From NCBI GenBank assembly GCA_038126035.1, contig JAYPEY010000014.1, positions 13,486 through 55,101 of the forward strand: DNA of 41,616 nt, read 5' to 3'. The notes beneath the pieces were generated by a model that made no database searches, had not been told where the DNA came from, and saw only the letters and a program-made list of their open reading frames with translations. The position numbers were made by a program, and so were the translations under genes. The DNA is from Verrucomicrobiales bacterium. GTDB lineage: Bacteria > Verrucomicrobiota > Verrucomicrobiia > Limisphaerales > JAYPEY01. Below, one piece after another: positions 3,370 to 41,616 of the stretch; within the stretch, counting starts at the first letter, position 1; each line of letters begins with the position of its first letter.

Positions 3370-4074
3370 ATGCCTCACGATCTCGACATCGCCGACGCGC
3401 TGCTGTCGTTCATCATCTTCGTGGTCTCGGTGACCCTGCATGAGGCGGCCCACGCCTGGGCGGCTCTCAAGGGCGGCGACCCCACCGCCTATCACGGCGG
3501 GCAGGTCACCATCGATCCCACGCCGCACATCCAGCGCGAACCCTTCGGCATGGTGGTCCTCCCCCTGCTCTCCCTCTTCCTGATCGGTTGGCCGCTGGGC
3601 TTCGCCAGCGCTCCCTACGATCCCATGTGGGCCGTGCGCCATCCTCGTCGCGCGGCCCTGATGGCCGCCGCCGGCCCCGCCGCAAACCTGCTCCTGCTGA
3701 TCGTCGCGGCGCTCGGCATCAAGGCCGGAATGATCGCCGGCCTCTTCTACGCCCCGGATTCACTGAGCTTTGGCCACATCGTCGGCGCCGAAGGCAGATT
3801 CGCATCCGGAATCGGCTACGTGTTGGGCATGGGCTTCTGCATGAACCTGCTCATGTTCGTCTTCAACCTCATCCCGCTCCCTCCGCTCGACGGCAGCGGC
3901 GTCGTCATGGGATTCCTTGATGAGGAAACCTCCGAGAAATACCTGACCGTCATGCATCAACCCGCCTTCACCATCATCGGCATGCTCCTGGCCTGGAAGC
4001 TGATCGCCTTCCTCTTCTCCCCCGTCCTCCTCTTCGCCATCGGCCTCCTCTACCCCGAATCAAATTACCGGTGA
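3370..4074 (+). CDS. Site-2 protease family (peptidase M50) intramembrane metalloprotease
   Basis: HEAAH zinc motif, AAGPAAN, FNLIPLPPLDG; several hydrophobic segments. Confidence 0.92.
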   Translation: MPHDLDIADALLSFIIFVVSVTLHEAAHAWAALKGGDPTAYHGGQVTIDPTPHIQREPFGMVVLPLLSLFLIGWPLGFASAPYDPMWAVRHPRRAALMAAAGPAANLLLLIVAALGIKAGMIAGLFYAPDSLSFGHIVGAEGRFASGIGYVLGMGFCMNLLMFVFNLIPLPPLDGSGVVMGFLDEETSEKYLTVMHQPAFTIIGMLLAWKLIAFLFSPVLLFAIGLLYPESNYR

Positions 4075-6876: not shown

Positions 6877-9378
6877 ATGAGAAAATGCCTTTTCCTCCAC
6901 CGTAGCGCGGCCGTCCCGGCAGCGGGTTACAGCAGCGTCTCGCCGCTAGAATCGGGCGACCGGGCGGGGACGCCCGTCGAACCAGCAGAGGCGCCCGTCG
7001 CATCCCTCAAACTCCCGATCGCCGCCGGCCTCACACTGGTCCTCACCGCGCTCCTCTCGATCACCGTCACGGCCATAGCCGAACTACCGCAGATCGACAG
7101 CGTGGAGTTCCAACCCTTCGCCTCCTCCACCGAACGCGTGCTGGAGGCCCTGCGTTTCGTCGGCGCGCCTTTGGCCACGGAGGACGAGGCTGCCGTCCGC
7201 GCCGCCCTGCGCGAGATCGATCAGGCCGGCGCGGTGAAAAAGATCCAGTCCGTGCTGGACCGCTATTGTGTGGCGGGGGTGCACATCAATCCCGAAAGCC
7301 GCGTCAAGGTGCAGGAGGGCCCCGCCAAAAAAGAACTGGTGCAGCAGGGCTGGCGGACCTTCCTGGTCAAGGTCCACAATGAGGCCGGCATCACGCCGAT
7401 CCTGAAGGCCGTGAGCCCGAACGCCCGGCCCCAATACAAGCGCAGCCGCAGCTCACCCGAGCCCAAGCTGGAGATCACCGCCGCCGATGTCGCCCATCGC
7501 TTCCTCGACATCGCCATGTTCAACAACCGCCCCCTCAAGCCCGGCCTTTCCGGACTCGAAGCGGAATATCGCATCATCCAGCTCTACAGCCGCGACGTCG
7601 GCCGCCGCGAGGCCACCCTCGCCTTCAATGTTGGCCAGGGCACCCAGGACCTCGGCTTCCGCAACGAGGTCGCCATCCTGTTCAACTGCGTCCCCGCCGT
7701 CAGCGTCTCCCTCGGCGTCAAGGACGTGGACGGCAGGCCCACCTCCGCCGCTTTCGTCATCCGCGATTCCCATGGTCGGGTCTATCCGAATCCAGCCCGC
7801 CGCCTGGCCCCCGATTTCTTCTTCCACGACCAGGTCTATCGCGCAGATGGCGAGACCCTGCTCCTCCCGCCCGGCGAGTATTCCGTCACCGTCACCCGCG
7901 GCCCGGAATACCTCGTCCAGACCAACCAATTGACCGTCAAGGAAGGCGTCGCCAGCCAACGCGCGGACTTCCAACTCCAGCGCTGGATCCACCCCGCCAA
8001 GCGTCAATGGTTTTCCGGCGACCACCACGTCCACGCCGCCGGTTGCGCCCACTACGAGAACCCCACCGAAGGCGTCACGCCCGCGGACATGATGCGTCAC
8101 ATCCTCGGCGAGGATCTCAATGTCGGCTGCGTCCTCAGTTGGGGGCCCTGCTGGTATGCGCAGAAGCAATACTTCGAAGGCAAGGTCTCCGCGCTGTCGA
8201 AGGGCGACCACCTCATGCGCTACGACGTCGAGGTCAGCGGCTTCCCCTCCTCCCACGCCGGCCACCTCTGCCTGCTCCGCCTCGAAGAGGACGACTACCC
8301 GGGGACCGAGCGCATCGAACAATGGCCCAGCTGGACTCTGCCCGTGCTCAAATGGGGCAAGGAGCAGAACGGCGTCGTCGGCTACAGCCACAGCGGCTGG
8401 GGACTCGCCCTGCCCGACTACGCGCCCGACGGCAGCCGCATCGAGATCTTCCGCCGCAAACCCGGCCCCCGCGGCCGCGCCGCCGACACGCTCCCCGACT
8501 ACGCCATGCCCCGCTTCGACGGCATCGGCGCCAACGAATACGTCGTCACCGTCGCCCACGATGTCTGCGACTTCATCTCCGCCGTCGACACCCCGGCCAT
8601 CTGGGAATTGAACATCTGGTATCACACGCTCAACTGCGGCTTCCGCGCGCGCATCAGCGGCGAAACGGATTTCCCCTGCATCTACGGCGACAAGGTCGGA
8701 CTCGGACGCATCTACGTGAAACTCGACAAGGACCAGCCCCTCAACTTCGACAACTGGGTCCAGGGCCTGAAGGCCGGCCGCAGCTACTGCGGCGACGGCA
8801 TGAGCCACATCCTCGACTTCAAGGTCGATGACGTCGCCGTCGGCGAACCCGGCTCCGTGGGCAGGATCAGCCAGCTCAACCTCGCCAAGCCCGGCAAGGT
8901 GAAGGTCAGCTTCGACGCCTCCGCCCTGCTGGCTCCGAAGCCCACCGCCGAAACCGAGCGCATCCGCAAATCCCGCCTCGACGCGAAACCCTACTGGCAC
9001 ATCGAGCGCAGCCGCATCGGCGCCACCCGCAAGGTCCCGGTCGAAATCGTCGTCAACGGCCAGGCCGTCGCCCGCAAGCAACTACTCGCCGACGGCAAAA
9101 CCCGCCCCATGAGCTTCGACATCGACCTCACGCATTCCAGCTGGGTCGCCGTGCGCATCCTGCCCAGCGCCCACACCAACCCGGTCTTCGTCGAGGTCGG
9201 CGGGCAACCGATCCGCGCCAGCCGCAAAAGCGCAGACTGGTGCATCAAGGCCGTCGACACCTGCTGGGAACAAAAGAAGAACCGCATCCGCGAAGACGAA
9301 CGAACCCAGGCCAGACTCGCCTACGGCCGCGCCCGCAGCATCTACGAAAAGATCAAACTGGAAAGCGTGGCGGATTGA
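6877..9378 (+). CDS. CehA/McbA-family (PHP-like) secreted metallohydrolase
   Basis: VHINPESRVKV, TRGPEY, WFSGDHHVHAAGCAHY, YDVEVSGFPSSHAGHL, GETDFPCI, SAHTNPVFV; hydrophobic signal-like stretch at about aa 46-70. Confidence 0.8.
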   Translation: MRKCLFLHRSAAVPAAGYSSVSPLESGDRAGTPVEPAEAPVASLKLPIAAGLTLVLTALLSITVTAIAELPQIDSVEFQPFASSTERVLEALRFVGAPLATEDEAAVRAALREIDQAGAVKKIQSVLDRYCVAGVHINPESRVKVQEGPAKKELVQQGWRTFLVKVHNEAGITPILKAVSPNARPQYKRSRSSPEPKLEITAADVAHRFLDIAMFNNRPLKPGLSGLEAEYRIIQLYSRDVGRREATLAFNVGQGTQDLGFRNEVAILFNCVPAVSVSLGVKDVDGRPTSAAFVIRDSHGRVYPNPARRLAPDFFFHDQVYRADGETLLLPPGEYSVTVTRGPEYLVQTNQLTVKEGVASQRADFQLQRWIHPAKRQWFSGDHHVHAAGCAHYENPTEGVTPADMMRHILGEDLNVGCVLSWGPCWYAQKQYFEGKVSALSKGDHLMRYDVEVSGFPSSHAGHLCLLRLEEDDYPGTERIEQWPSWTLPVLKWGKEQNGVVGYSHSGWGLALPDYAPDGSRIEIFRRKPGPRGRAADTLPDYAMPRFDGIGANEYVVTVAHDVCDFISAVDTPAIWELNIWYHTLNCGFRARISGETDFPCIYGDKVGLGRIYVKLDKDQPLNFDNWVQGLKAGRSYCGDGMSHILDFKVDDVAVGEPGSVGRISQLNLAKPGKVKVSFDASALLAPKPTAETERIRKSRLDAKPYWHIERSRIGATRKVPVEIVVNGQAVARKQLLADGKTRPMSFDIDLTHSSWVAVRILPSAHTNPVFVEVGGQPIRASRKSADWCIKAVDTCWEQKKNRIREDERTQARLAYGRARSIYEKIKLESVAD
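6902..7001. repeat. GTAG-type REP-like palindromic element, degenerate, inside the 5' end of the CDS
   Basis: GTAGCGCGGCCGTCCCGGCAGCGGGTT...CAGCGTCTCGCCGCT...GGCGGGGACGCCCGTCGAACCAGCAG resembles GTAG-headed REP units; recognised from memory, not searched. Confidence 0.45.
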
Positions 9379-20221: not shown

Positions 20222-20656
20222 ATGCGCGACGTCAAAGACACCAAACGAGCCACCGTCCGGGTCGGATTCGACGGCCGCGTCCACAAGCAATACCACGGCT
20301 TCTGCGCCGACAAACGCTTCGAAAACGAGGTTCGCGTCCTGCGCTTTCTGGAGGAGAACGGCTGCGACTTCGTGCCCCGGGTCGTTTCCGCCGACGAAGA
20401 GCGCCTCATTCTCGTCACCACCAATTGCGGCCAGATCGTCGAGAAACTCAGCGAATCCAAGCTGAAAGAACTCTTCGGCGAACTCGAGTCCTTCGGTGTC
20501 CGCCACGGGGACCCTTTCGCCCGCAATGTTACCTATGACGGACGCCAGGGCCGCTTCTGCATCATCGATTTCGAATTCGCCACCATTCCTTCAACCGGCG
20601 AAGGCCTGACCATCGAGGACCTCGAGCGGCTCCACAGGCAGGAGGCCGACCAGTGA
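20222..20656 (+). CDS. Minimal protein-kinase-like protein (144 aa)
   Basis: VHK (beta3 Lys), ENEVRVL (alphaC Glu), RHGDPFARNV (catalytic loop HxDxxxxN), IIDFEFA (DFG-equivalent); ends soon after. Confidence 0.75.
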   Translation: MRDVKDTKRATVRVGFDGRVHKQYHGFCADKRFENEVRVLRFLEENGCDFVPRVVSADEERLILVTTNCGQIVEKLSESKLKELFGELESFGVRHGDPFARNVTYDGRQGRFCIIDFEFATIPSTGEGLTIEDLERLHRQEADQ

Positions 20657-21477
20657 GCGCCCCGATCCGGCAGTTCACCTGGAATGGCCAGACACATCAG
20701 GGCCGCGTGCGTCGCAACAACGAGGACGCCTTCCTCGCCATGATGTTCAACCAGCACGAGATGCACTATCTCGGCAAGATCGGCGAGGCGCCGTCGGACG
20801 ACAACGACTTCATTTTTGCCGTCAGCGATGGCATGGGCGGTGCCAAGAAGGGCGAATACGCCAGCAAGACCGCGCTCCAGACCCTGACCCACCTGATCTC
20901 CCGCAAGTTCCATCGCGGCAAGGCGGACCTCCAGATCGACAAGGAAAGCGTCCTGCGCGAGTTCTTCCAGTCTGTCCACGAAGGCGTCCAGAATGTGGGG
21001 CGCTACTACGAGGAATGCCGCGGCATGGGGGCCACGATGACTCTCTGCTGGTTCAGCGGCAACACCCTGTCGGTCGGCCATGTCGGCGACAGTCGCGCCT
21101 ACCATTTTCCCAAAGGCGGCGGCATCAACCAACTCACCGAAGACCATACCGTCCCCGGCCGACTGCGCCGCGAGGGCAGGATCAGCGAGCGCGAGGCCCG
21201 CAATCACCCGAACAAGCATCTCCTCGAACGCTCCATCGGCGCCCAACCCGATCCGGTGGAGCCCCAGATCGTCTCGCTGCAGTTCGGCGTCGGCGACCGC
21301 TTCGCCCTGTGCACCGACGGCGTCACCGACGGCATCTGGGACCACGGCATGGAGCGCTACATCCAGGATCCCCCGCCCTACCTGATCGACCTCCCCCCGG
21401 CCCAGCGTCTGATCAAGGAGGCCATGGATGCCTCCGGCCGCGACAACCTCACCGCCCTGGTCGTGGAGACCGATTAG
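20653..21477 (+). CDS. PP2C/PPM-family Ser/Thr protein phosphatase
   Basis: GRVRRNNEDA, VSDGMGG, HVGDSRAY, LCTDGV, GRDNLT; GTGA overlap with the kinase gene. Confidence 0.92.
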   Translation: MSAPIRQFTWNGQTHQGRVRRNNEDAFLAMMFNQHEMHYLGKIGEAPSDDNDFIFAVSDGMGGAKKGEYASKTALQTLTHLISRKFHRGKADLQIDKESVLREFFQSVHEGVQNVGRYYEECRGMGATMTLCWFSGNTLSVGHVGDSRAYHFPKGGGINQLTEDHTVPGRLRREGRISEREARNHPNKHLLERSIGAQPDPVEPQIVSLQFGVGDRFALCTDGVTDGIWDHGMERYIQDPPPYLIDLPPAQRLIKEAMDASGRDNLTALVVETD

Positions 21478-24339: not shown

Positions 24340-25491
24340 TTGCAGGGCCCGGTCGATGCTGCCATTTCCCGTGTTTTGCTGGAGAAACGATCCAAGAAGC
24401 GACCCAGGTCCGCCAATTCCAAGCGCAGGTTCAACTGGAGATTCAGCGATCTGTATCGTCGCGCGTTGGTCTGGAGAAAGGAGTGGCAGGCCCGGCTTTC
24501 AGGCCGGGGTTATTCCTGCGCCGCCCTGGACGGCGTTTCCGAATACAACATCACGATCAACAGCGATCTGACCGTGTCCTGCAACTGCCAGGATTACGAC
24601 GGCCTCGGTCATCTCGGCAGTCTCCGCGAGGACTCCTTCTCCGATGTCTTCTTCGGCTCCAGATCGCAGCAGTTCCGCTCGGAACTCGCCCGCGGAAACC
24701 TGCCCATACCGACCTGCTCCCGCTGCGGCGACCTGAAACGGCTTCCGCCGGACTCCCCAAACGAACCGCCCGCGGCGCGCCTGCCTTATCGGGGCATGCT
24801 GTTGGAGAACACGGTCCGCTGCAATGTGGATTGCACCGGCTGCGCCCGCGAGAACGCCGCCGCCATCCGCGTCAACAAGCAACTCCTGATGCCTCTGGAG
24901 GACATGGAGAAGATGTCGGATCTCGTCAGCGAACTCGAAATGCGGCAACTGTTCTTCCTCAATCTTGGAGAACCGTTCCTCTCCCCCAACATCGGGCAGG
25001 AACTGGACATGCTCCGGCGAAAGAACCCCGACCTCCGGATCTACACCTCCACCAACGGCGTGCTGCCGAACAAGGACGCCAAGCGCGAGGCGGCGCTCAA
25101 CCTCAGCCATATCGCTTTCTCGGTGCACGGAATCAGCAACCAGATGTCCGCCAGATACATGCGGAACGGCGATTTCGAAAAGGCCTAAAAGGCCATGAAA
25201 GAGATGGCCGCCTTCCGCAATGCCCGAAACCTCACCGAGCCGATACTCGAGTGGAAATACCTGCTCTTCAACTGGAACGACAAACCAGAACACCTCGCCC
25301 GCGCCATTGAAATGGCCAGGGACGCCGGCGTGGAATTCATCTCCTTCTGGCCCACCAACAACCCCTTCTGGGGCTGGTCCTGGCGCTATCGCCTCGGGCT
25401 CCTGGACCGGTTCGGCAAAAAATGCTGGAAAGGACTCGAAGTCGATCTGCGCCCGGAACCTCATCACGGCAAGCCCCTCCCCCAGTTCTGA
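24340..25491 (+). pseudogene. Radical SAM protein with an N-terminal SPASM/twitch-like module, interrupted by an in-frame TAA at 25186-25188
   Basis: CNVDCTGC (CxxxCxxC), GEPFL, STNG; N-terminal YSC...VSCNCQD...LGSL...CSRC; ORFs 24340..25188 and 25195..25491 share a frame (EKA*KAMKEM...LEWKYLLFNWND); start codon uncertain. Confidence 0.78.
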
Positions 25492-27341: not shown

Positions 27342-28040
27342 ATGAGTTCATCTGATGAGGTAAACAAAAAGATACAGGAGCTGGAAGCGCTCAAGAAAGA
27401 GGCGGGACGATGGAAGCTTGGCGGCACCATCGCCATTCTGGTCATCGTCCTGGTCTGCGTCGGCAAGATTGTCGGCGGCGTCACCGCCCTGGCCAAGAAA
27501 AGCCCCGAACAGGAGAAACTGATCGCGAAGGTCAAGGAAGGGATCGACAACCAGATCATTCCGGATCTCAAGCGCGCCGGAGACCAGGCCAAGGAAAAGG
27601 CCACTGCCGCGCTTAAGGCCGAGCTCGACAAGCTCAGCGACCGTCTCCCCGAATTGACCTCGAAGGCCCAGGCCGAAGCGATGGCCCTGGCCGAGGCTCT
27701 GCAGGAAGAGGCTGACGTCGTGATGAAGGACACCTTCGAGAAGATGCTCAAGGATCGCGAGGCCAAGATACGCGAGATGTATCCCGAGGTCACCGAGGCC
27801 AAGATCACCTCGGCCGTCGCCAACCTGCAGACCGAGATCGAGGCCGAGTTGAACAAACTCATCAAGGAGATGTTCATCGAGCACCTCGAGGCGGTCGACG
27901 GCATCGTGCAGCACATCCAGATGATCAAGGAGGACAACGACGACCTGGATCTCCACGACCAGGACGCTCCCTGGGAGATGGCGACCCTCATCTTCGAGAT
28001 CGTCAAAGAGGAGTTCGACGGACGATTGAAGCTGCCCTGA
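27342..28040 (+). CDS. Hypothetical membrane-anchored all-helical/coiled-coil protein
   Basis: One TM segment near the N-terminus (LGGTIAILVIVLVCVG), then K/E/A/L-rich amphipathic helices; strong GC3 codon bias. Confidence 0.8.
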   Translation: MSSSDEVNKKIQELEALKKEAGRWKLGGTIAILVIVLVCVGKIVGGVTALAKKSPEQEKLIAKVKEGIDNQIIPDLKRAGDQAKEKATAALKAELDKLSDRLPELTSKAQAEAMALAEALQEEADVVMKDTFEKMLKDREAKIREMYPEVTEAKITSAVANLQTEIEAELNKLIKEMFIEHLEAVDGIVQHIQMIKEDNDDLDLHDQDAPWEMATLIFEIVKEEFDGRLKLP

Positions 28041-28077: not shown

Positions 28078-28836
28078 ATGAGTGAAGAAAAGTCCAACAA
28101 ACCGGAAGGCGCGGCCAGCGCCGGAGGCGGCGCGACCGCTGAAGCCTACATCAACGAGCAGCTCATCAAGGCGCGCAAAGGCCTCAACACGACCCGCATC
28201 GCGATGTCGGTCGTCGCGCTGATCGTCCTGACCTACATGAGCTTCATCACGGTCCAGATCGGCAAGTTCACCGATCCGGAAATCGCCGCAGACCTCGCCA
28301 TGGGCTACGCCAAACCCCAGGTCGACAACTACACCTCCCAACTCCTCGAACAGGTCGACACCAAGATCCCCGAAATACTGGCCCCGCTGCCCGACAAGGT
28401 CCTGGAATCACTTCCGGATTACCGGCAGAACATCCAGACCAAAATCGTCGAATCGATGCGCACCTACGCGGGTCAGACCTCCAACGACATGGGCGAGCAA
28501 CTCGACGCCTATCTCGAGGCGCACGGCGATTCGATCGCCGATCTCCTCAAGACCGCCGACGACCCGCAGGCCGGCCAGGAATTCGCCAAGGCGATCTCCG
28601 AGCAGATCGTCGGCTACCTGGACCACAAGACCCCGGACGGGGAATCCCTGCGTGAAAAACTGGACCTCTCGCTGATTGCGCTGCAGGGCATCCAGGGCCA
28701 TGTCGCCTACCTCGCCAAGTCCGACACGCTGAACAAGCACGAGCAGAACCAACGGCGCGTCATCGCCATCCTCGTGCGCACGGTCGAGCAGGAAATCTCC
28801 CGGACCGCCGCCGGCCAGAATCTGCCCGGACTCTGA
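28078..28836 (+). CDS. Hypothetical membrane-anchored helical protein (apolipoprotein-like composition)
   Basis: One TM segment (IAMSVVALIVLTYMSFITV), then amphipathic helices punctuated by Pro; strong codon bias. Confidence 0.8.
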   Translation: MSEEKSNKPEGAASAGGGATAEAYINEQLIKARKGLNTTRIAMSVVALIVLTYMSFITVQIGKFTDPEIAADLAMGYAKPQVDNYTSQLLEQVDTKIPEILAPLPDKVLESLPDYRQNIQTKIVESMRTYAGQTSNDMGEQLDAYLEAHGDSIADLLKTADDPQAGQEFAKAISEQIVGYLDHKTPDGESLREKLDLSLIALQGIQGHVAYLAKSDTLNKHEQNQRRVIAILVRTVEQEISRTAAGQNLPGL

Positions 28837-30332: not shown

Positions 30333-31463
30333 ATGAAGACCAAAGCCGCCGTTCTCTACGAAATGGAGAAACCCAAGCCCTACGCCGAGTCAAAGCCGCT
30401 CGTCATCGAGGAACTCGATCTCGAAGGTCCCGGCCCGGGCGAGGTCCTGGTCGAGATCGGCGGGGCCGGTCTTTGCCACTCCGACCTGTCGGTCATCAAC
30501 GGTTCCCGACCGCGCGTCATGCCCATGGCGTTGGGACACGAGGCGGCGGGGACAGTGCGCGAAGTCGGGGCCGGGGTGACCGGTCTCCAACCGGGCGACC
30601 ATGTCGTCTTCTCCTTCGTCCCCGTCTGCGGTCACTGCCAGCCCTGTCAGGCCGGACGCGCAGCCCTCTGCGAACCGGGCTTTGAAGCCAATGTCGCCGG
30701 CACGCTGCTCAACGGAGCCCGTCGATTCCACAACCCCGCCGGCGAACCGATCAACCACCACCAGAGCGTGTCCGGCTATTCGCAGTTCACCGTCACGATG
30801 CCTGAGTCATTGGTGAAGATCGACCCGGAGGTCCCGCTGGAAACGGCCGTCCTGTTCGGCTGCGCCATCATGACCGGCGTGGGCGCCGTGGTGAACACCG
30901 CCCGTGTGCAGCCGGGATCCTCCGTCGTCGTGTTCGGCATGGGAGGCGTCGGACTCAGCGCGGTCATGGGCGCTCGCGCCGCGGGAGCCGGCCCGATCGT
31001 CGCCGTCGACAGGCTGGAGTCCAAATTCGATCTGGCCCGCCAATGCGGCGCCACCCACACCGTGGACGCCTCCCGGGACGACGCCGTCGAGGCCGTCCGT
31101 GAAATCACCGGAGGCGGCGCCGAATTCGCCTTCGAGGTGGTCGGCAGCGAGAAGGTCCTGGCGCAGGCCTACGCCTCAACCGCTCGCGGCGGCACGACCG
31201 TCAGTGTCGGACTCCCTCATCCCGAACGAAAACTGGAGATCCAGGCCGTGTCCCTCACCGCCGAGGAACGCGTGCTTCGCGGCTCCTACATGGGCTCCTG
31301 CGTGCCCAGCCGCGATGTGCCGCGCTTCATCTCGATGTACCGGGCCGGCCTCCTGCCCGTCGATCTCCTGAAGAGCCGCTTCCTCGGGCTGGAGGACATC
31401 AATGAAGGTTTCGACCGTCTCGACCGCGGCGAGGTCGTGCGGCAGGTGATCCGTTTCGACTGA
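30333..31463 (+). CDS. Zinc-dependent alcohol dehydrogenase (MDR family)
   Basis: GLCHSD, GHEAAG, CGHCQPC...C, GCAIMTG, GMGGVG. Confidence 0.92.
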   Translation: MKTKAAVLYEMEKPKPYAESKPLVIEELDLEGPGPGEVLVEIGGAGLCHSDLSVINGSRPRVMPMALGHEAAGTVREVGAGVTGLQPGDHVVFSFVPVCGHCQPCQAGRAALCEPGFEANVAGTLLNGARRFHNPAGEPINHHQSVSGYSQFTVTMPESLVKIDPEVPLETAVLFGCAIMTGVGAVVNTARVQPGSSVVVFGMGGVGLSAVMGARAAGAGPIVAVDRLESKFDLARQCGATHTVDASRDDAVEAVREITGGGAEFAFEVVGSEKVLAQAYASTARGGTTVSVGLPHPERKLEIQAVSLTAEERVLRGSYMGSCVPSRDVPRFISMYRAGLLPVDLLKSRFLGLEDINEGFDRLDRGEVVRQVIRFD

Positions 31464-31467
31464 ACGG

Positions 31468-32715
31468 TCATTCCCCGCCCGGCAGCAAGGCGCTGGGAAT
31501 CTTCGCCCCCATGCGCAGGCGCAGGAAAAACAGGCCCATGCCTGCGAGTCCGATCATCAGGTTGGGTGTATGAGCGTCTCCGGCAAAGCCGCAGGGCCAG
31601 GCCAACCGGTTCTCACCGAACCGTTCCCAACCAGCCAGCCCCGCCTCCCGGGCCAGATCCCTCAGCTCCGGACGTCCCAAGAGTCGATCAGCCGACAGCA
31701 GCAGGTCCGCATTGCCTCCCGCGCCATGGCAGAGGGAGAAATTGCCCGTGCGATGCTGGTTGAATTCGCTGACCGACGACGCTGTCGTTTCCAGCGCAGC
31801 ATCCGCCTCACGCGCCGCCTCAATGTCAGACAACGCGCCCGCGGCAACGATCAGCGACAACGCAATTCCCGGGGCCCCGTGACACCAGGCCCGCATGAAC
31901 TTCAAGCCCTCGGAAGCGGGCGTCACATCCACAGCGGCTTCCCGAAGATCAGGCCAGTTCCTCACATCATCCCGATACCAATGCCGCTCGTAGCGCATGG
32001 CTTCAATGGCCGCCTGGCGAAACCGGACCTCCGCCGTCGTCGCAAACAAGCGGGAAAACGCGAGCGTAAAACCGGCGGCGCCGTGCGCCAACCCGGTCAG
32101 TTCCGGCCCGGAACCTGAAACCGTACGCCAACTCCAACCGTGTTCCGATCGATCCGCCAGCCCGATCAATTCATCACCCAGCTTAACGGCCCATTCGATC
32201 AGCGCGCCATCATCCAGGCTCCCCCCCATTGTCAGCAGCGCCGGAATCGCTCCCGCTCCGCCCGCAATGACATCAGGATTCTTCGCCGGCGCGCCGTTCC
32301 CGCGCGTGTCCCTGAGCAACCTGCGGGCCCCTTCGATGAACTCCCCCTCCGCCAGCGCCTCGCCCGCGCGCGCCAAAGCCCACCCGACGCCGACGGCGCC
32401 CGAATAGAATCCCGCCGCCAATTGCGGCGCCCTCGTCACTTGAAACAAGGATTGTCGCAGGGCCGCCGTCGCTGTCTTCCTGTGAACGGCCTCGCCGGTG
32501 ACCTTTGCCAGTTCAGCAAGAAACCAGGCCACCCCCGCGTTCCCCGAATACAGCCCCGCATCCAACGAAACGGTGTCGAAGCGCCGCCTGGCTCCCGCCC
32601 CGCCAGCCTGACGATCGCCCAACCACGCGCACCGACCGTCGTGACGGATCGCGTCGGCGCAGATGCGCGAACCGATCTCGTCAGCCGCCGCCAGAAACAG
32701 GTCATCGTCCGTCAT
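31468..32715 (-). CDS. Stand-alone LanC-like lanthionine cyclase
   Basis: Repeated GxxG motifs (LYSGNAG, FYSGAVG, VIAGGAG), GLAHG (catalytic His), NWPDLR, AWCHG and LCHG (zinc ligands), LMIGLAG; ATG at 32715 overlaps the upstream stop (ATGA). Confidence 0.88.
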   Translation of the reverse strand: MTDDDLFLAAADEIGSRICADAIRHDGRCAWLGDRQAGGAGARRRFDTVSLDAGLYSGNAGVAWFLAELAKVTGEAVHRKTATAALRQSLFQVTRAPQLAAGFYSGAVGVGWALARAGEALAEGEFIEGARRLLRDTRGNGAPAKNPDVIAGGAGAIPALLTMGGSLDDGALIEWAVKLGDELIGLADRSEHGWSWRTVSGSGPELTGLAHGAAGFTLAFSRLFATTAEVRFRQAAIEAMRYERHWYRDDVRNWPDLREAAVDVTPASEGLKFMRAWCHGAPGIALSLIVAAGALSDIEAAREADAALETTASSVSEFNQHRTGNFSLCHGAGGNADLLLSADRLLGRPELRDLAREAGLAGWERFGENRLAWPCGFAGDAHTPNLMIGLAGMGLFFLRLRMGAKIPSALLPGGE

Positions 32716-33737
32716 AACGTCAATTCCCCCAATCCATGCGGATCCCGACCGCCTCGATTCAACCACGGTTCATCCAGCGAAATGCCCCGCTTCTCAAATC
32801 GCGCCTCAATCGCCGCCAACCCGCCCCCAGAAGCCCCGCCCTCTTCAAAGGCATCGATCAAGCCGTCCGCCACGATGCCGCAGCGATCCATTCCAAAACT
32901 CTCGCCGCCTTCCGGGTTCTCCGCCGCCCCGACTCCGCGAGCAATCCGGCGCGTGAACAGCGGCGTCGCGTCGTCCAGATCGTCCGCCACCCCGGTCACG
33001 ATCTCCGGCAACAACTCCCGCAACAACCCGATCCTCCGACCGCCCACATACAGGACCCCGGAATCGCGCCGGATGTAATGCCGTTTCTTCGCCGGACACT
33101 TGAACTGATACGGAATGCGCCATCGGTTGAGAACCCGCCCCAGGATCCCGACCAGTCGAACCGCCCCCTCCCAACGAAGGTTCCAGTAGATCCTGATCTG
33201 CGTCGCCCGTTCCACATCGTCCGCCGCCGCCTCCCCGAAAAAGAAATGAAATCCCGGCTGCGCCGCGGTCGATTCGGACAGTGTCAACGCGCGAACGATA
33301 TCGCCGGCGCCGGGCGCATGCGGCTTGGCGTCGTGGACGTACTGCCCGGGAGACCATGTCCGCGCCCGGGAGTCCTTCACCGTCGTCAACCGACCATCGG
33401 GCAGTCTGGCGATCGTCTTCCAGCCCTCATCCCAGGACGTCCGCCCCGGATTCGCCGCGCTCAGCAGACTGGACACGTCGTCCCCGGACTTCGCCCCCTC
33501 CCCATCCACCTGTGGAAGCGGGTCCGCCCCAGCCCCGGTGTAGAACCCGCTGTAGAGGGAGTTCCTAAGCCGGGTCCTCAACGCGTCGCCACCCAACTGC
33601 GCGGTGCGCCCGGTCGGCGGAGGCTGATCGCGCACGTCCACGCTTCGCCCATGCAATTGAAATTCATGCCGGGAGACGATCTCCGTCGCCCCGGCAATCT
33701 CCCGCAGGCTCTCCCTGACGTCGTCGGAGGCGCTCAT
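32712..33737 (-). CDS. HopA1-family protein (LanY-like phospho-Ser/Thr lyase)
   Basis: RIYWNL, PYQFKC, RRDSGVLYV, TPLFTRRIARGVGAAENP, ESFGMDRC; ATG at 33737 overlaps the kinase stop (ATGA). Confidence 0.82.
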   Translation of the reverse strand: MSASDDVRESLREIAGATEIVSRHEFQLHGRSVDVRDQPPPTGRTAQLGGDALRTRLRNSLYSGFYTGAGADPLPQVDGEGAKSGDDVSSLLSAANPGRTSWDEGWKTIARLPDGRLTTVKDSRARTWSPGQYVHDAKPHAPGAGDIVRALTLSESTAAQPGFHFFFGEAAADDVERATQIRIYWNLRWEGAVRLVGILGRVLNRWRIPYQFKCPAKKRHYIRRDSGVLYVGGRRIGLLRELLPEIVTGVADDLDDATPLFTRRIARGVGAAENPEGGESFGMDRCGIVADGLIDAFEEGGASGGGLAAIEARFEKRGISLDEPWLNRGGRDPHGLGELTL

Positions 33738-34829
33738 CCTCGTTCCCCCAGCAATTGCGCCGCCGATTCGGCGGGCTTGGACATCAGGTTCACACCCGCC
33801 TGGACCTGGCGGACCGCGTGCCAGGTCAGGCGCGCGCGTCCGCGCGCCCATTCGTAGGCCGTCTGCACCAGTCGGGCGCCCGCAAACCGCAGCGCCTTTT
33901 CGAACGCCACGGAGTCTTCGCTCTCATTCCAGCAATTCGCTTTCGCGTAAGCAGCCCAGAAGGCCCCGATCGCGGAACGCATGGAATCCATGGGCAATTC
34001 CGATGATCGCACCGCTTCGGCCAGGGATTCCTCCGCGCCCGTCGGTTTTACCGAGTGGAGCCACTGGTTGAACCAGGATTGCATCACCCCGCCGACATCC
34101 CAGAGCGCGTCCCCAAAATCGGCAAACTCCCAATCGACAATGGCGACCGGATTATCCGACGCCTTCCCCGGACGCCGCAGGCAGTTCTCCAGTTTCATGT
34201 CGCCATGAATCAGCGCATTGGCGGTCCATTCCCCCGCGATCTTCGCGGTCTCCTCCAAGACCTCCGGATACTCACGAACAATGCCGGCCACCGATGCCTG
34301 TCCCCCGGTGGGGGCGCCATACTTCAACTGCCGCTCCGGCCAGTTGGCGTGCAGGATCCAGGGCATGGCCGACGGAAAGACCGTGTTCGCCGCCAATCGG
34401 TCCTTCCGCGCGGCGCCCGACCCGGCCAGCGCGCCCAATGCCCCCCCCCAGCGAGGCGGCGTATTCCACGTCGAATTCCCTGCGGGCGGCTTGGGAGCGC
34501 AGCAGGTTGTCACCGGGAATCAACTCCATGACCAAGGTCCGCACGGCCTTGTCATGCAACCGCAACTCCGAAAGGATTGTGCGCAATTCCGGCCAATCGC
34601 CGGCCATTTGAAAACAGGCCGCCTCCCGCTCCGAATGACGCCCGCCAGCGCTCACGCCCAAGCCGGCCTGCTTGACGAAACAGCCGTTCCCCTCTCCGTG
34701 CGCCGCCACAAAACTGCGGTTACGACCGGAGCGATCCCGTATTTCCAGACGCCCGTCCAACGGCGCCGTCGCATCGATCAGACCGCGCGCCACCAGGAAA
34801 TCGTAAAGGTTGTGTCGCGTCAGAATCAT
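33734..34829 (-). pseudogene. APH-type phosphotransferase (LanK-like kinase) with a +1 frameshift in a G9 run (C9 at 34441-34449 on the + strand)
   Basis: N-half (ORF 34272..34829): SGRNRSF, CFVKQ, LVMELIPG; C-half (ORF 33734..34513): IHGDMKLENCL, IVDWEFADFGDALWDVG. G8 instead of G9 gives one 364-aa ORF. Confidence 0.82.
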
Positions 34830-34878
34830 CCGGAATGCCCTGTCCCCGCCATCAGCCCAGCCAGGCGGGACAAACCGC

Positions 34879-36456
34879 CTACTTCACCCCGCACATCAGC
34901 TTCCTGATCGGCTTGGCGAAGATCAGCAGCAGGACCCCGGTCACGATCGCCGTCACCACAATCTGCAGGAACAACGCCGGCAGGACCTCCATGTTGAAGG
35001 TCCTCATGCACCACCCCAGCAGAAACCCCGGCTCGCCGCCCTCCTCTTCCAAACTGAAATCACCGGCGATCAATCCGGCAATCAGGTTGCCGAGCGACGC
35101 CGCCAGGAACCAGGTCCCCATCATCTGCCCGACAAACCGCTTCGGCGCCAGCTTCGTCACCGAACTCAATCCCACCGGACTCAGACAGAGCTCCCCCATC
35201 GTGTGCAGCAGATAGGTCAGGATCAGCCAGAAGGGCGCGACGCTGTTTCCGGCGGTCGCGATCTTCGCCGCCGCCACCATCAGCAGGAATCCCGCAGCCA
35301 GCAGGATCAGGCCGATCGCAAACTTCACCGGCATCGACGGCTCCAACATCCGCTTCGCCAGACTCACCCACACCCAGGCGAAATACGGCGCCAGCACAAC
35401 TATGAAAAACGGGTTCAACGACTGGAACCAACTCGCGGGAATCTCAAAACTGATGAAACCCAGCATCCGGTCAGTATGATCCTTGGCAAACAGGTTCAAC
35501 GAAGAGCCCGCCTGCTCAAAACCGGCCCAGAACATGGCCGCCGCCAGGAACAGGACCACGATCACCATCGTTCGCTTCGTTTCGGTCTCGTCCAATTTGC
35601 CGAACATGAAGACGGAGCCGAAGAACAATACGGCCATGCCGACGATGATGTAGGTCGTGTTCGCCGCCAGATCGATCGGGTGGTAATCCACCGCTCCTGC
35701 AAGTCCCAGGATCACGGCGACCGCCACCGCGGCCAACCCGCCTGCAACCCAATACCAACCGGGATCGATCCCCTTGGCATCCGATCGATGCGCCGGATCG
35801 CGCCCGGCCGCGCCCATGTCCTTCAAGGTCATCCCGTATTGGATGACGCCAAACAGCATTCCGATGCCCGCGGCGCCAAAACCCAGGTGCCAGTTGACCT
35901 CCTCGCCCAGATAACCGCACACCAGCGGGCCGATGAAGGCGCCGATGTTGATGCCCATGTAGTAGACCGTGAACCCCGCGTCCCTCCGCGCCCCGCCCTC
36001 CGGATACAGTTCCCCGACGAGGGCGCTGATGTTCGGCTTCAGAAACCCGGTTCCGATCACCACCAGGACAAGCCCGACAAAGAACGCCGCCGTCCCGGGC
36101 AGGGCCAACGTGAAATGTCCCGCCGTGATGACGATGCCGCCGACCAGGACGGCCCGTTGCGCGCCCAGCAGGCGATCCGCAATCCAGCCGCCAGGCAGCG
36201 ACACCAGATACACGAACGCGGTGTAGAGCCCATAGACCGCCCCCGCGGTCTTCCCGTCCATGGCCATGCCGCCCTTCTCCACCTCGGCGACCATGAACAA
36301 CACCAGCAGCGCGCGCATGCCGTAGTAGCTCGCGCGCTCCCACATCTCCGTGAAAAACAACGTGGAGAGCCCCGCCGGATGGCCGGTCACCCGCTCCCAT
36401 GCGCGCCCCACGGCCGTGGACGCGGTCGAACCCGCTCTCGTTTCTGAATCGGACAT
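34879..36456 (-). CDS. POT/PTR-family proton-dependent oligopeptide transporter
   Basis: GHPAGL..LFFTEMWERASYYGMRA (ExxER), GGWIADRLLG, GFLKPNIS, FTVYYMGINIG, GELCLSPVGLS. Confidence 0.93.
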   Translation of the reverse strand: MSDSETRAGSTASTAVGRAWERVTGHPAGLSTLFFTEMWERASYYGMRALLVLFMVAEVEKGGMAMDGKTAGAVYGLYTAFVYLVSLPGGWIADRLLGAQRAVLVGGIVITAGHFTLALPGTAAFFVGLVLVVIGTGFLKPNISALVGELYPEGGARRDAGFTVYYMGINIGAFIGPLVCGYLGEEVNWHLGFGAAGIGMLFGVIQYGMTLKDMGAAGRDPAHRSDAKGIDPGWYWVAGGLAAVAVAVILGLAGAVDYHPIDLAANTTYIIVGMAVLFFGSVFMFGKLDETETKRTMVIVVLFLAAAMFWAGFEQAGSSLNLFAKDHTDRMLGFISFEIPASWFQSLNPFFIVVLAPYFAWVWVSLAKRMLEPSMPVKFAIGLILLAAGFLLMVAAAKIATAGNSVAPFWLILTYLLHTMGELCLSPVGLSSVTKLAPKRFVGQMMGTWFLAASLGNLIAGLIAGDFSLEEEGGEPGFLLGWCMRTFNMEVLPALFLQIVVTAIVTGVLLLIFAKPIRKLMCGVK

Positions 36457-36579
36457 GCGCAGGGTTTACCCGCGAAGCGACCGGTTGAAAAGGATCGATG
36501 CGTCCCCTCGCACCGGAAAACAAAACCCGGAGTCGGGGCTTTCATCCGCGGGTCGGCATTGCCAGCCGCGGCGAACAAG

Positions 36580-37491
36580 TCATTCACCTCCTGCGGCCGG
36601 ATGAGACGCTGGCGGACACGAGCCGCCCAGCCGCCCATGGACCACCCATTGCCGTCGGCGGAATCGCGGAAAGTGCCGCAACTTGGCCAGCCTCCCCAGC
36701 TTCGGTTCATCCTCGTCCAGATGCATCCATTCCTTCAGTATCTCAATGCCGTCGCCCCAGGCCGCAATCTCCCGCGCATCGGCCACGCCCGAGCAAAACA
36801 TCGCCCCGGGTCCGAAGCACAACTCCGCCATGAGCTTCCTCTCCACCTCTCCGCGCCGCAGCGGATCAAGCCAGAATGAATTGAACACCTCGCACACAAG
36901 CTCCGCCCCCGGAAAACGTCGACACATCTCCCCCGCCAGGGCCTCCACTTCATGGTTCTCAAGATACATGAAAAGCCCCTCCGCCAGAAAAAGGACCGGG
37001 CCATCCCCGCTCAGGGCAGGCGCATCCATCCAGCCGAAGTCCATCACATTGCCCGCGACGGCGGCCGCTCCCGCATCGCCCCCCGGCAGGCCGCGCCGCA
37101 ACCCGATGATCTCCGGCGTGTCCAGATCGAAGAATCGTCCACCGGAGCCCTGCAGCCGATCAAACCGCGTATCGAAACCGCAGCCCAACGTGGCCACTGT
37201 CCCGCCGGGATGTCGCCCCAGAAAACCCTGCGTCAACCGGTCGAACTCCCGGGCGCGCAGGGCCACATAGACCTGCGTTTCGGGATGTGTGCTCAACCTC
37301 GCAGCGCGCTCATGCAGATCGATTCCGGACGTCTGGAGCCGCGGTTTGAGGCGGGCCAACCAATCGACCGCCAGCGGATCCCGCAGAATCGGAGCCGCCG
37401 ACCGCGTCTCCGCAACGCGGCACGCCAGCGTCATCAGCGCCGTAGCCGGCACATCGCCAAGGGTCAGGTTGTCGGTCGCCAGATCGTTCAT
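36580..37491 (-). CDS. Class I SAM-dependent methyltransferase (LCM/TcmP-like O-methyltransferase family)
   Basis: VPATALMTL..R, LRDPLA, RAREFD, LGCGFDTRF, DLDTPEII, LAEGLFMYL; start at the MNDLAT ATG. Confidence 0.85.
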   Translation of the reverse strand: MNDLATDNLTLGDVPATALMTLACRVAETRSAAPILRDPLAVDWLARLKPRLQTSGIDLHERAARLSTHPETQVYVALRAREFDRLTQGFLGRHPGGTVATLGCGFDTRFDRLQGSGGRFFDLDTPEIIGLRRGLPGGDAGAAAVAGNVMDFGWMDAPALSGDGPVLFLAEGLFMYLENHEVEALAGEMCRRFPGAELVCEVFNSFWLDPLRRGEVERKLMAELCFGPGAMFCSGVADAREIAAWGDGIEILKEWMHLDEDEPKLGRLAKLRHFPRFRRRQWVVHGRLGGSCPPASHPAAGGE

Positions 37492-40180: not shown

Positions 40181-40816
40181 ATGGCCATCACCGTTTCCAT
40201 CGTCGAAGATCAGGATGAAACCCGCGAGCATCTGACGCTCCTCGTCAATGGCGCGCCCGGATTTTCCTGCGTCAGCAACCATGGTTCCGCCGAAGAGGCT
40301 CTCACCGAGATCCCGAAACTGCGGCCCGACGTCGTCCTGATGGACATCAACCTGCCCGGGATCAGCGGCATCGACTGCGTCCGCCAACTGAAGGAGGCGT
40401 CCCCCGATATCCAGGCGCTGATGTGGACGATGTACGAGGATGCGGACCAGATTTTCGAGGCACTCACCGCCGGCGCCAACGGCTACCTGCTCAAGCGCGA
40501 CCCGCCCTCCAAAGTCCTTGAGTCCATCACGGAACTGGTCTCCGAAGGAGGCGCGCCGTTCTCACCGCGCATCGCCCGCATCGTCGTGCAATACTTCCAG
40601 GGCAAGCCCGCGGCCAGCTCGGATCAATACAACCTCTCCAAGCGCGAACTCGAGATTCTGGAACTGCTGGCCAAGGGCCATCGCTACAAGGAGATCGCCA
40701 ACGACCTCGGCATCAGCTTCGACACCGTCCGCAGCCACCTCCGCAACATTTATGAGAAACTGCAGGTCAGTTCCCGCACGGAGGCCGTTGTGAAGTTTCT
40801 CAACGGCAAACGTTGA
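40181..40816 (+). CDS. NarL/LuxR-family response regulator
   Basis: [24 protein letters not shown]; [15 protein letters not shown]...[13 protein letters not shown]. Confidence 0.93.
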
Positions 40817-40885
40817 ATCGAGCCCCCCGGTCTGCCATTGAATGACGGACGCCGCATTCCCCGCGCCGCCACCTGACCGGCCGAC

Positions 40886-41616
40886 ATGCCCGCAGCCCCC
40901 GCCATCCCGTTCGATCCGCCGGACCACACAGTCGGCGGGTGGCTCCCCTCTCCCGCGCAAAAATCCCTGCTCCGCGCCAGCCTCCTGACCGACGCCGACG
41001 ACGCGGAAGCCGCGCTGGATGAATGGCTGCGGAAGATGAACCGGCGGCCATTCGACGCGGCCTCCTGGCGGTTGCTCCCCCCACTGGCCCACAACCTCCG
41101 GCGTCTGGGCATCGACCACCCCATCCTCGCCGACATCGAGCCGATCCATCGCTACATCTGGCTCAGAAACAAGATCCACCTGAACCGGGCGGCGCAGATA
41201 CTCGACACACTGGCCGCCCATGGAAGCGCCGGCATCGCGCTCAAGGGCGCCTCCCTCCTGCTGCGCTGCCATGACAACCTCGGCCTGCGGTCGATGGAGG
41301 ACTTCGATGTGCTGATCCCCACAGAGCACGCCTGGGACACCGTTCAATTTCTCCTGTCCCAGGGCTGGAAGGCCCCGTTCATCCGGTCCCGCCTCGACCG
41401 GGACTGGCTCTCCACCCACCATTCCCTGAACTTCATCGGCCCCGACGACACCCGCCTCGACCTCCATTGGCACATCTTCCCCGAAAGGGTCGAGGCCGAC
41501 GCGGACGCCGGCTTTTGGGAAGATGCGGTCCCCCTCGATGTGTGCGGCGTCAAAGCCCTGGCCCTCGATTGGACCGACGAATTTCTCACCGCCTGCATCC
41601 ATGGCGTCCGCTGGGA
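40886..41616 (+). CDS. Nucleotidyltransferase family protein (NTP_transf_5-like), truncated at the window end
   Basis: Manual translation: MPAAPAIP...RLLPPLAHNL...IALKGASL...LRSMEDFDVLI...LDLHW; open to the window end. Confidence 0.75.
   Translation, partial: MPAAPAIPFDPPDHTVGGWLPSPAQKSLLRASLLTDADDAEAALDEWLRKMNRRPFDAASWRLLPPLAHNLRRLGIDHPILADIEPIHRYIWLRNKIHLNRAAQILDTLAAHGSAGIALKGASLLLRCHDNLGLRSMEDFDVLIPTEHAWDTVQFLLSQGWKAPFIRSRLDRDWLSTHHSLNFIGPDDTRLDLHWHIFPERVEADADAGFWEDAVPLDVCGVKALALDWTDEFLTACIHGVRW

Follow-up and report, generated by a model that had tools for sequence, protein, structure and literature searches.

A probably orphaned lanthionine-synthetase gene set, now being lost, in a Verrucomicrobiales bacterium

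Three coupled genes on the minus strand of a Verrucomicrobiales contig, encoding an APH-type kinase, a HopA1-family lyase and a LanC cyclase, are probably best explained as an orphaned and recently inactivated lanthionine-synthetase set that is now being lost, next to a peptide transporter gene whose adjacency is incidental. The outcome of our analysis of the surrounding 41,616 nucleotides (hereafter the window) is mainly corrective. The preliminary description had proposed a peptide importer combined with a class V lanthipeptide module; this reading fails, and the cluster type is already known from genome mining.

Organization of the locus

The gene of the APH-type, LanK-like kinase (33734..34829, minus strand) is +1-frameshifted: its 5' part is read from the ATG at 34829, its 3' part continues in another frame to the stop at 33736-33734, and the shift is located in a run of nine guanines (34441..34449, minus strand; C9 on the plus strand). 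The genes of the LanY-like HopA1-family phospho-Ser/Thr lyase (32712..33737, minus strand; 341 aa) and of the zinc-type LanC cyclase (31468..32715, minus strand; 415 aa) are intact. Both the ORF lists and the sequence confirm the coupling of the three genes by ATGA start/stop overlaps, at 33737/33734 for kinase and HopA1 and at 32715/32712 for HopA1 and LanC. The tight placement of the trio is likewise borne out by the coordinates: it starts 49 nt past the gene of a proton-dependent oligopeptide transporter (POT; 34879..36456, minus strand; PTR2 8e-70, TIGR00924 426 bits), a neighbour outside the module, and the LanC stop lies 4 nt (31464-31467) from the stop of a convergent Zn-dependent alcohol dehydrogenase gene (30333..31463, plus strand; ADH_N and ADH_zinc_N), which forms the other edge. 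The spacer between POT and kinase (34830..34878, minus strand) corresponds to the slot of the substrate gene in relatives; a crude sigma-70 scan, which carries little weight for this organism, detected neither a sigma-70-like promoter nor a terminator-like site in it.

A Pfam scan of 31 window ORFs revealed no ABC exporter, Cys decarboxylase or reductase. A Peptidase_M50 gene is present at 3370-4074, far from the trio.

Assignment of the three enzymes

Profile searches matched all three enzyme families and show that the enzymes had been assigned correctly: Pfam APH on the 3' part of the kinase (4e-9), PF17914 on the HopA1 protein (4.5e-32) and PF05147 (LANC_like) on the cyclase (2.5e-55). The 3' part of the kinase has retained 16 of 16 residues with a conservation of 93% or more in other trios, among them those of the HGDxKxxN and DWE motifs. 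The HopA1 protein resembles the lyase of the lexapeptide dehydratase, LxmY (PDB 9dk1_B, E 2.4e-10), and retains every invariant column of 35 homologues; the spacing of its R182/K213/R223/Y230 equals that of R187/K219/R229/Y236 in CaoY, a residue set established by mutagenesis (PMC9486802). For LanC, the best NCBIfam match is the LanM C-terminal domain (TIGR03897, 1.8e-73), with LicM2 as PDB match (2e-20). Its translation contains the GLAHG, WCHG and LCHG motifs, and H211, C278-H279 and C329-H330 are kept, with Cys278/His279 and Cys329/His330 as zinc ligands; 57 of the 61 positions conserved to at least 93% in other trios are retained as well. A quick LanC tree reveals no close donor of the trio.

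Judging from the families, the chemistry previously suggested, i.e. phosphorylation, elimination and thiol addition, is reasonable. The kinase would phosphorylate Ser/Thr residues of a substrate protein, the HopA1 lyase would eliminate the phosphate to leave dehydro-residues, and LanC would add Cys thiols to these, forming thioether rings.

The trio genuinely belongs to a widespread type of lanthionine synthetase, 'phosphotransferase + HopA1 + LanC' (Eyles et al. 2021), in which the same three enzyme families are adjacent and co-linear. According to that study, 96% of 1,340 HopA1 proteins adjoin a phosphotransferase and 20% are near or fused to LanC, and the threefold combination could be a new, uncharacterised lanthionine synthetase (Eyles et al. 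2021, Chem Sci, PMC8153245). The window agrees with this type in its HopA1-kinase adjacency and its zinc LanC, but differs in that it has no substrate gene and a frameshifted kinase. In the literature searched, we found no biochemically characterised member.

The label 'class V', on the other hand, does not fit. Class V systems are described as consisting of LanK, LanY and a second APH-like protein, LanX, to which cyclisation is ascribed, without LanC (PMC9486802). The module shares the dehydration half, APH-type kinase and HopA1-type lyase, with LxmK/LxmY/LxmX and CaoK/CaoY/CaoX; however, it includes a zinc LanC and no second APH gene, and the two kinase parts reach 27 and 49.8 bits with the NCBIfam LxmK model (NF038156), far below its cut-off of 315, a match at superfamily level only. 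Class IV LanL and class II LanM follow the same logic of kinase, lyase and zinc LanC cyclase. Yet LanL and LanM each unite these steps in one polypeptide, elimination by LanM taking place in its kinase-like domain (PMC9486802), whereas the window encodes three separate proteins with a lyase of the HopA1 rather than the OspF type.

Related loci and their substrate genes

The 80 related loci used for comparison were retrieved with aligned natural homologues that have the SFGMHRC motif in common, a search pattern that biases the set towards one sub-motif of the family. They show a pattern like that of the published type: the order kinase, HopA1, LanC occurs in 67 of them, and kinase followed by HopA1 in 75, the other eight being without LanC. 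Of 16 long HopA1 homologues tested, fusion to LanC is seen in 14 and fusion to APH in one. The conserved order together with these fusions indicates that the trio is not a chance arrangement.

The relatives almost consistently carry what the window does not. Of 63 loci with at least 1500 nt of upstream sequence, 59 possess a leader-domain ORF and/or a Cys-rich ORF just upstream of the kinase, and a repeat ORF was recognized by eye in a 60th (L022); in 7 of 67 loci, the leader-domain gene is located elsewhere in the locus, not directly adjacent to the kinase. An adjacent substrate gene is the rule in the homologous clusters and a conserved link to POT is lacking (see below), two outcomes that the preliminary description had itself named as speaking against its proposal. 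The substrate protein usually consists of a conserved N-terminal domain of about 100 aa followed by long Cys/Thr-rich repeats, which number in the dozens; the largest (L005) comprises 856 aa with 64 Cys. Undibacterium, Bradyrhizobium and Tumebacillus are among the cultured hosts. The leader domain has no match in Pfam or NCBIfam and no clear one in the PDB, and its motif does not occur in the available, possibly truncated supplement text of Eyles et al. 2021 (PMC8153245). For its predicted fold (pLDDT 73.9), Foldseek returned no PDB match at E <= 0.001, and the best score of a wide VIA search was a Z of 3.9, with small beta-barrel look-alikes only; these model-based searches would point neither to a new nor to a known fold.

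At the locus itself, the absence of an adjacent precursor is upheld: no precursor-like ORF was seen here or in the closest relative, the sister contig L084. The unannotated window ORFs at 6877-9378, 27342-28040, 28078-28836 and 40562-41602 are not Cys-rich; those at 27342-28040 and 28078-28836 are also conserved in congeners that have no trio. The leader HMM has no match in the window, and its best among 79,993 six-frame ORFs of the genome is at E 4.1. A genome-wide screen for Cys/Thr-rich ORFs gave 83 candidates, of which the top 40 were inspected and all looked like shadow frames. Comparison of 82 precursor ORFs with the genome by blastp produced low-complexity matches only, and Nif11 leaders have no match in the genome; a search for NHLP leaders was equally without matches, its control matching nowhere either. 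Substrate genes with many repeats are difficult to assemble, and the genome is a metagenome-assembled draft (157 contigs, 91.8% complete), so that a substrate gene not linked to the trio may have escaped the assembly.

The kinase frameshift

The kinase frameshift is real. One base fewer in the G9 run restores the frame, and the restored reading agrees across the site with the intact 365-aa kinases of the close relatives P0154 (78%) and P0155 (68%). Contigs from four of four separately assembled runs, including SNP-variant haplotypes, bridge G9 with no gaps; these assemblies come from one study and may include the source assembly, and minority G8 molecules would be invisible in contigs. As a consequence of the frameshift, dehydration is probably off in this organism. 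The run is not conserved, since L084 reads GGGGAC at this site and P0155 is also in frame, so that it looks like a recent mutation rather than an evolved switch. The genome contains 85 G/C runs of at least nine, which makes such runs common mutational sites here. Very long G/C runs also occur in clusters in this genome, in part at the ends of contigs, and are possibly sequencing artefacts.

Local history and selection

HopA1 was not found in the 60 relatives searched, including the four same-genus genomes, nor PF17914 in any of 400 other genomes of the phylum. The same layout of POT, trio and dehydrogenase is present in L084, an independent metagenome contig, in which the kinase has a TGA at codon 5. 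The congeners G002 and G003 lack the trio, and POT and the dehydrogenase directly face each other there in convergent orientation. In G002, the 78-nt spacer between them matches the 3'-terminal ~75 nt of LanC, and in G003 the two genes are 18 nt apart; the dehydrogenase gene shows 78-88% DNA identity across all four same-genus genomes. The aligned remnant implies that G002 deleted the whole trio and retained a 3' scar of LanC.

These findings also bear on the transporter. A tblastn search (E 1e-4, within ~8 kb) detected POT in none of the 80 related loci, and outside the window its linkage to the trio is found in L084 only. The existence of two congeners with POT and dehydrogenase but no trio, one of them with a scar, indicates that POT was in place here before the trio and does not depend on it. 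The adjacency of POT is positional, not functional, and the functional link proposed earlier is not sustained.

Between the window and L084, all three genes show a dN/dS of 0.17-0.21, and none of their domains is relaxed; such purifying selection means that for most of its history the trio was more than junk. Four pairs of intact, precursor-bearing control clusters gave 0.13-0.27; two atypical pairs (L006/L036, 0.46-0.60; L016/L017, 0.03-0.10) show that the 'ordinary' range is broad, and four further pairs were unusable owing to saturated dS. Since the values resemble those of intact clusters, the arrangement without a precursor was kept by selection for most of this time, a persistence that a mere 'remnant' leaves unexplained.

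Interpretation of the locus

We favour as probable the interpretation given at the outset: in this lineage, the trio stands alone, wedged between the convergent housekeeping genes POT and dehydrogenase, and it would have been functional until recently, as the selection record suggests, before the kinase was hit by the +1 frameshift. The frameshift, together with the losses in sister lineages (the stop at kinase codon 5 and the deletion with a scar), argues for an orphaned set that is now being lost. Observations that count against it are a dN/dS of about 0.2 without a substrate gene in cis, the intact kinases of P0154 and P0155, the intact HopA1 and LanC genes with all catalytic residues, and the draft state of the assembly. 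The same observations could be accommodated if the trio were a still working, trans-acting lanthionine synthetase with a substrate encoded elsewhere, and with G9 as an on/off switch or bypassed by slippage. Ordinary purifying selection on all three genes, the incomplete assembly and the non-adjacent leader-domain gene in 7 of 67 relatives lend themselves to this alternative, which we regard as possible, though with clearly less confidence. It is opposed by the genome, which yields no leader domain, Cys/Thr-repeat protein or Nif11 leader, by a G run that is not conserved, is one of 85 and appears as G9 only in all four run assemblies, and by the different kinase lesion in one sister lineage and the deletion of the trio in a congener. 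It is hardly credible that the frameshift or the POT junction arose during assembly and that an ordinary, unbroken cluster lies behind it: the metagenomic origin of the draft and its long G/C runs would be compatible with it, but four run assemblies reproduce the whole of 31300-36600 or bridge the G run without gaps, and L084 independently shows the same layout.

Two further models dispense with a dedicated substrate. Mammalian LanCL shares the LanC fold and the addition of thiols, transferring glutathione onto dehydro-residues, and stands alone, without a dedicated kinase/lyase pair; the LanC of the window, in contrast, is translationally coupled to a kinase and a lyase, and dedicated Cys-rich substrates accompany its relatives. 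The branch without a precursor (window, L084, P0154 and P0155) might represent a selected, trans-acting protein modifier, a bacterial counterpart of the LanCL pathway that is switched off here by the poly-G run. Its targets would be cellular proteins encoded elsewhere, which would receive dehydro-residues along with thioether or small-thiol adducts. We consider this unlikely; it rests on a dN/dS of about 0.2 without a cis substrate in two lineages and on a genome with no recognisable precursor. Very doubtful, in our view, is the broader proposal of a non-RiPP system acting on cellular proteins, or on peptides brought in by POT, through phosphorylation, elimination and thiol conjugation, in the manner of LanCL with glutathione. 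Purifying selection in two lineages without a cis substrate gene would suit it, and the spacer, without promoter- or terminator-like sites in the crude scan, would permit co-transcription with POT. Against it stand the absence of POT from all 80 loci, the congeners that keep POT without the trio, the nesting of the enzymes in a family that almost always has a dedicated substrate gene, and the retention of 57 of 61 conserved LanC positions.

As an orphaned set, the locus is a documented snapshot of gene-set loss, with three different lesions in three sister lineages and normal selection until recently. Tracing its relatives revealed that large Cys/Thr-repeat proteins almost always precede this uncharacterised enzyme type. 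If these substrates are multiply thioether-bridged 'lanthi-proteins', lanthionine chemistry would extend from short peptides to whole repeat proteins.

Gene organization of the trio

Four genes of the window share one orientation on the minus strand: the gene of an oligopeptide transporter (POT, 36456-34879; Pfam PTR2, 8e-70) and, after a spacer of 49 nt in the sequence, a kinase gene starting with ATG at 34829 (Pfam APH, 4e-9), a HopA1-family gene (33737-32712; Pfam HopA1, 4.5e-32) and a LanC gene (32715-31468; Pfam LANC_like, 2.5e-55). The last three – referred to here as the trio – are coupled by ATGA start/stop overlaps, and only 4 nt separate the LanC stop from that of a convergent Zn-dehydrogenase gene on the opposite strand (30333-31463). 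Coordinates and Pfam matches confirm the layout of the preliminary description. Elsewhere in the window, the SPASM and radical-SAM matches of the ORF at 24340-25188 stand in inverted order compared with the usual one, SPASM at residues 69-129 and radical-SAM at 158-281; a misassembly, a rearrangement or the presence of two gene pieces could explain this. At 20222-21477, a short APH/Kdo-like kinase ORF of 144 aa shares nucleotides with the beginning of a gene for a PP2C phosphatase; by position, this pair is unrelated to the trio.

Assignment of the enzymes

Searched against the PDB, the trio lyase hits chain 9dk1_B, the structurally solved lyase of lexapeptide (E 2.4e-10), and the trio lyase's residues R182, K213, R223 and Y230 are spaced as R187, K219, R229 and Y236 of the cacaoidin lyase CaoY, three of which matter according to mutagenesis reported in passages of PMC9486802. 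The LanC protein retains the His and two Cys-His zinc motifs as well as 57 of 61 positions conserved to at least 93% among the LanC proteins of other trios, and LanM C-terminal domains are its top curated matches. All 16 conserved positions examined in the 3' part of the kinase gene are kept, those of the catalytic loop and the Asp that binds metal among them. Judged by these residues, the trio looks catalytically competent, frameshift aside (see below); its chemistry would comprise phosphorylation, elimination and thioether formation.

The lyase is akin to those of the class V products lexapeptide and cacaoidin, but the label "class V" applied to the locus earlier does not hold: class V lanthipeptide systems are without LanC, as stated in passages of PMC9486802, whereas the trio contains one of the zinc type, and the two parts of its kinase reach 27 and 49.8 bits with LxmK, the kinase model of class V, far under the cut-off of 315.

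Distribution of related loci

Relatives of the HopA1 protein form 2,587 clusters in a representative library (E <= 0.001). Of 16 long HopA1 proteins tested, 14 are fused to LanC (HopA1-LanC) and one to APH (APH-HopA1); hence, the kinase, lyase and LanC activities work together. The HopA1 Pfam family is also matched above its cut-off in the control genome of Corynebacterium glutamicum.

A pattern scan with one genome per species yielded 80 loci from many phyla, a sample which is biased because the pattern represents one motif variant. According to tblastn with the window's proteins, the order kinase > HopA1 > LanC occurs in 67 of them, kinase > HopA1 alone in eight (six cyanobacterial), HopA1 > kinase in three, and HopA1 > LanC with no kinase detected in two, one of which (L041) ends at a contig end. 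None of the 80 contains the POT gene by the same search, and in two same-genus genomes (G002 and G003) POT is directly convergent with the dehydrogenase gene; the proposed link between the trio and a peptide importer is thereby refuted. In two Pyrinomonadaceae loci, another HopA1 > kinase pair, this one lacking LanC, is found some kilobases downstream of the complete trio (L059:9258-11171 and L062:9324-11231). Genes for large Ser/Thr kinases of the Hanks type are located some kilobases upstream of the trios in L012, L031, L052, L063 and L067, in L063 together with an FHA-domain gene.

A repeat-protein gene upstream of the kinase

According to clustering of the flanking ORFs, the kinase gene of the relatives is directly preceded by another conserved gene, the fourth of the set; genes outside these four vary (33 ORFs, 12 loci). 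In most cases, about 100 aa at the N-terminus of the encoded protein form a conserved domain (leader domain), and the long, highly repetitive region behind it is rich in Cys, Thr and Pro, with dozens of Cys/Thr-rich tandem repeats. A 9-residue unit occurs in about nine copies in L010 (5821-6789), and the protein of L005 (284-2854), the largest, has 856 aa with 64 Cys; L026:5217-6596 is a further example. Among the 67 complete loci, 51 give a match to an HMM of the leader domain, immediately upstream in 44 cases and elsewhere in the locus in seven. With Cys-rich upstream ORFs added, a candidate is present in 59 of the 63 loci whose upstream sequence spans at least 1500 nt. Of the four misses, L022 has a repeat ORF recognised by eye and L045 a Thr-rich ORF with one Cys; in L053 and L067, no upstream candidate substrate ORF was seen. 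In Undibacterium, Sideroxydans and relatives, the putative substrate is split, a large repeat protein with no leader following a short protein that bears one. This split type occurs, e.g., in L018 (4596-5309 and 5548-6678), and also in L019-L021, L028, L030, L032-L034, L046, L047, L049, L056 and L073. The upstream proteins matched no Pfam family (14 tested) and no NCBIfam family (8 tested); in a structure model of the leader domain, the core is rich in beta structure (pLDDT above 85), and a structure search of the PDB gave no clear match. We infer that these repeat proteins are the trios' substrates, and likely giant ones with multiple lanthionine rings.

The preliminary description rightly noted the missing adjacent precursor, as the leader HMM finds no match within the window. 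Nor does it match any of 79,993 six-frame ORFs of the 6.05-Mb genome (best E 4.1); composition and blastp screens of the genome returned only shadow or low-complexity frames, and a search for Nif11 leaders none. With an assembly of 157 contigs and 91.8% completeness, absence of a substrate gene is not proven, because repeat genes assemble poorly.

Kinase frameshift and local history

A run of nine consecutive G (34441-34449; C9 on the plus strand) divides the kinase gene between two reading frames. Contigs of four separately assembled public runs bridge this run without gaps, and the frameshift is real; an assembly artefact is accordingly very improbable. The runs stem from one study labelled estuary metagenome, which may include the source of the window; SNP-variant haplotypes occur in two of the four assemblies, and minority length variants are invisible in contigs. 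Poly-G tracts are not special here, because the genome has 85 G/C runs of nine or more. The genome also has clusters of very long G or C tracts reaching 25 nt (e.g. C1:4426-4617, C17:40298-40384, C32:15197-15335), some at contig ends (C53, C60, C121, C150), which may represent an unusual repeat or artefacts of sequencing.

The HopA1 protein was not found in 60 relatives examined, four same-genus genomes among them, nor was its Pfam family in any of 400 other genomes sampled from the phylum. A sister metagenome contig (L084) has the window's layout, POT-kinase-HopA1-LanC-dehydrogenase; at the amino-acid level, the POT proteins are 92% identical and those of the trio 74-78%. The L084 kinase keeps its frame where the window has the G run, but has a TGA at codon 5, where the near-identical protein P0154 has Arg; the kinase of a third lineage (P0155) is intact as well. 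In G002, POT and dehydrogenase are separated by a 78-nt spacer whose alignment covers the final ~75 nt of LanC and continues into the dehydrogenase gene, with short similarity at the junction (L092, G002:C457, 480-560); on sequence grounds, this is a clean deletion scar. Together with the shared layout, the scar places the trio in the ancestor of these lineages. Throughout these lineages it lacked an upstream substrate gene, and it was later damaged in three distinct ways.

Pairwise comparison of the window with L084 (dS 0.47-0.82) gives dN/dS of 0.19 and 0.17 for the two kinase parts, 0.21 for HopA1, 0.19 for LanC and 0.06-0.12 for flanking genes; region-wise, no relaxed stretch appears in HopA1 or LanC. 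Intact, precursor-bearing clusters at similar dS show 0.13-0.27 in four control pairs, 0.03-0.10 in one and 0.46-0.60 in another. The trio falls in the range of most control pairs. Ordinary constraint has thus acted on it during the greater part of its divergence, and its lesions are recent.

Interpretation and relation to known types

Probably, the trio is an orphaned set that was recently inactivated and is being lost, the window's copy presumably being inactive now. The selection record is the chief evidence against a simple remnant and speaks for a trio that still acts in trans, its substrate being unlinked and the G run either bypassed or serving as a switch; yet the independence of the three lesions and the lack of conservation of the G run are the chief evidence against a working system, and we regard action in trans as a possible but clearly weaker explanation. 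A role outside RiPP biosynthesis on cellular or imported peptides, also raised in the preliminary description, seems unlikely. The loss of an orphaned set thus remains our preferred reading.

Passages of Eyles et al. 2021 (PMC8153245) record the phosphotransferase-HopA1-LanC type, to which the window's trio belongs, as uncharacterised, and find LanC close to, or fused with, 20% of HopA1 proteins. In the full-text literature, subscription journals aside, we found neither a later characterisation of this type nor large repeat substrates; the leader motif was not found in the non-PDF supplement text of that study, which may be truncated. The trio is a new, stranded addition to a known type, and more of note lies in the substrate-protein family than in the window's own locus.
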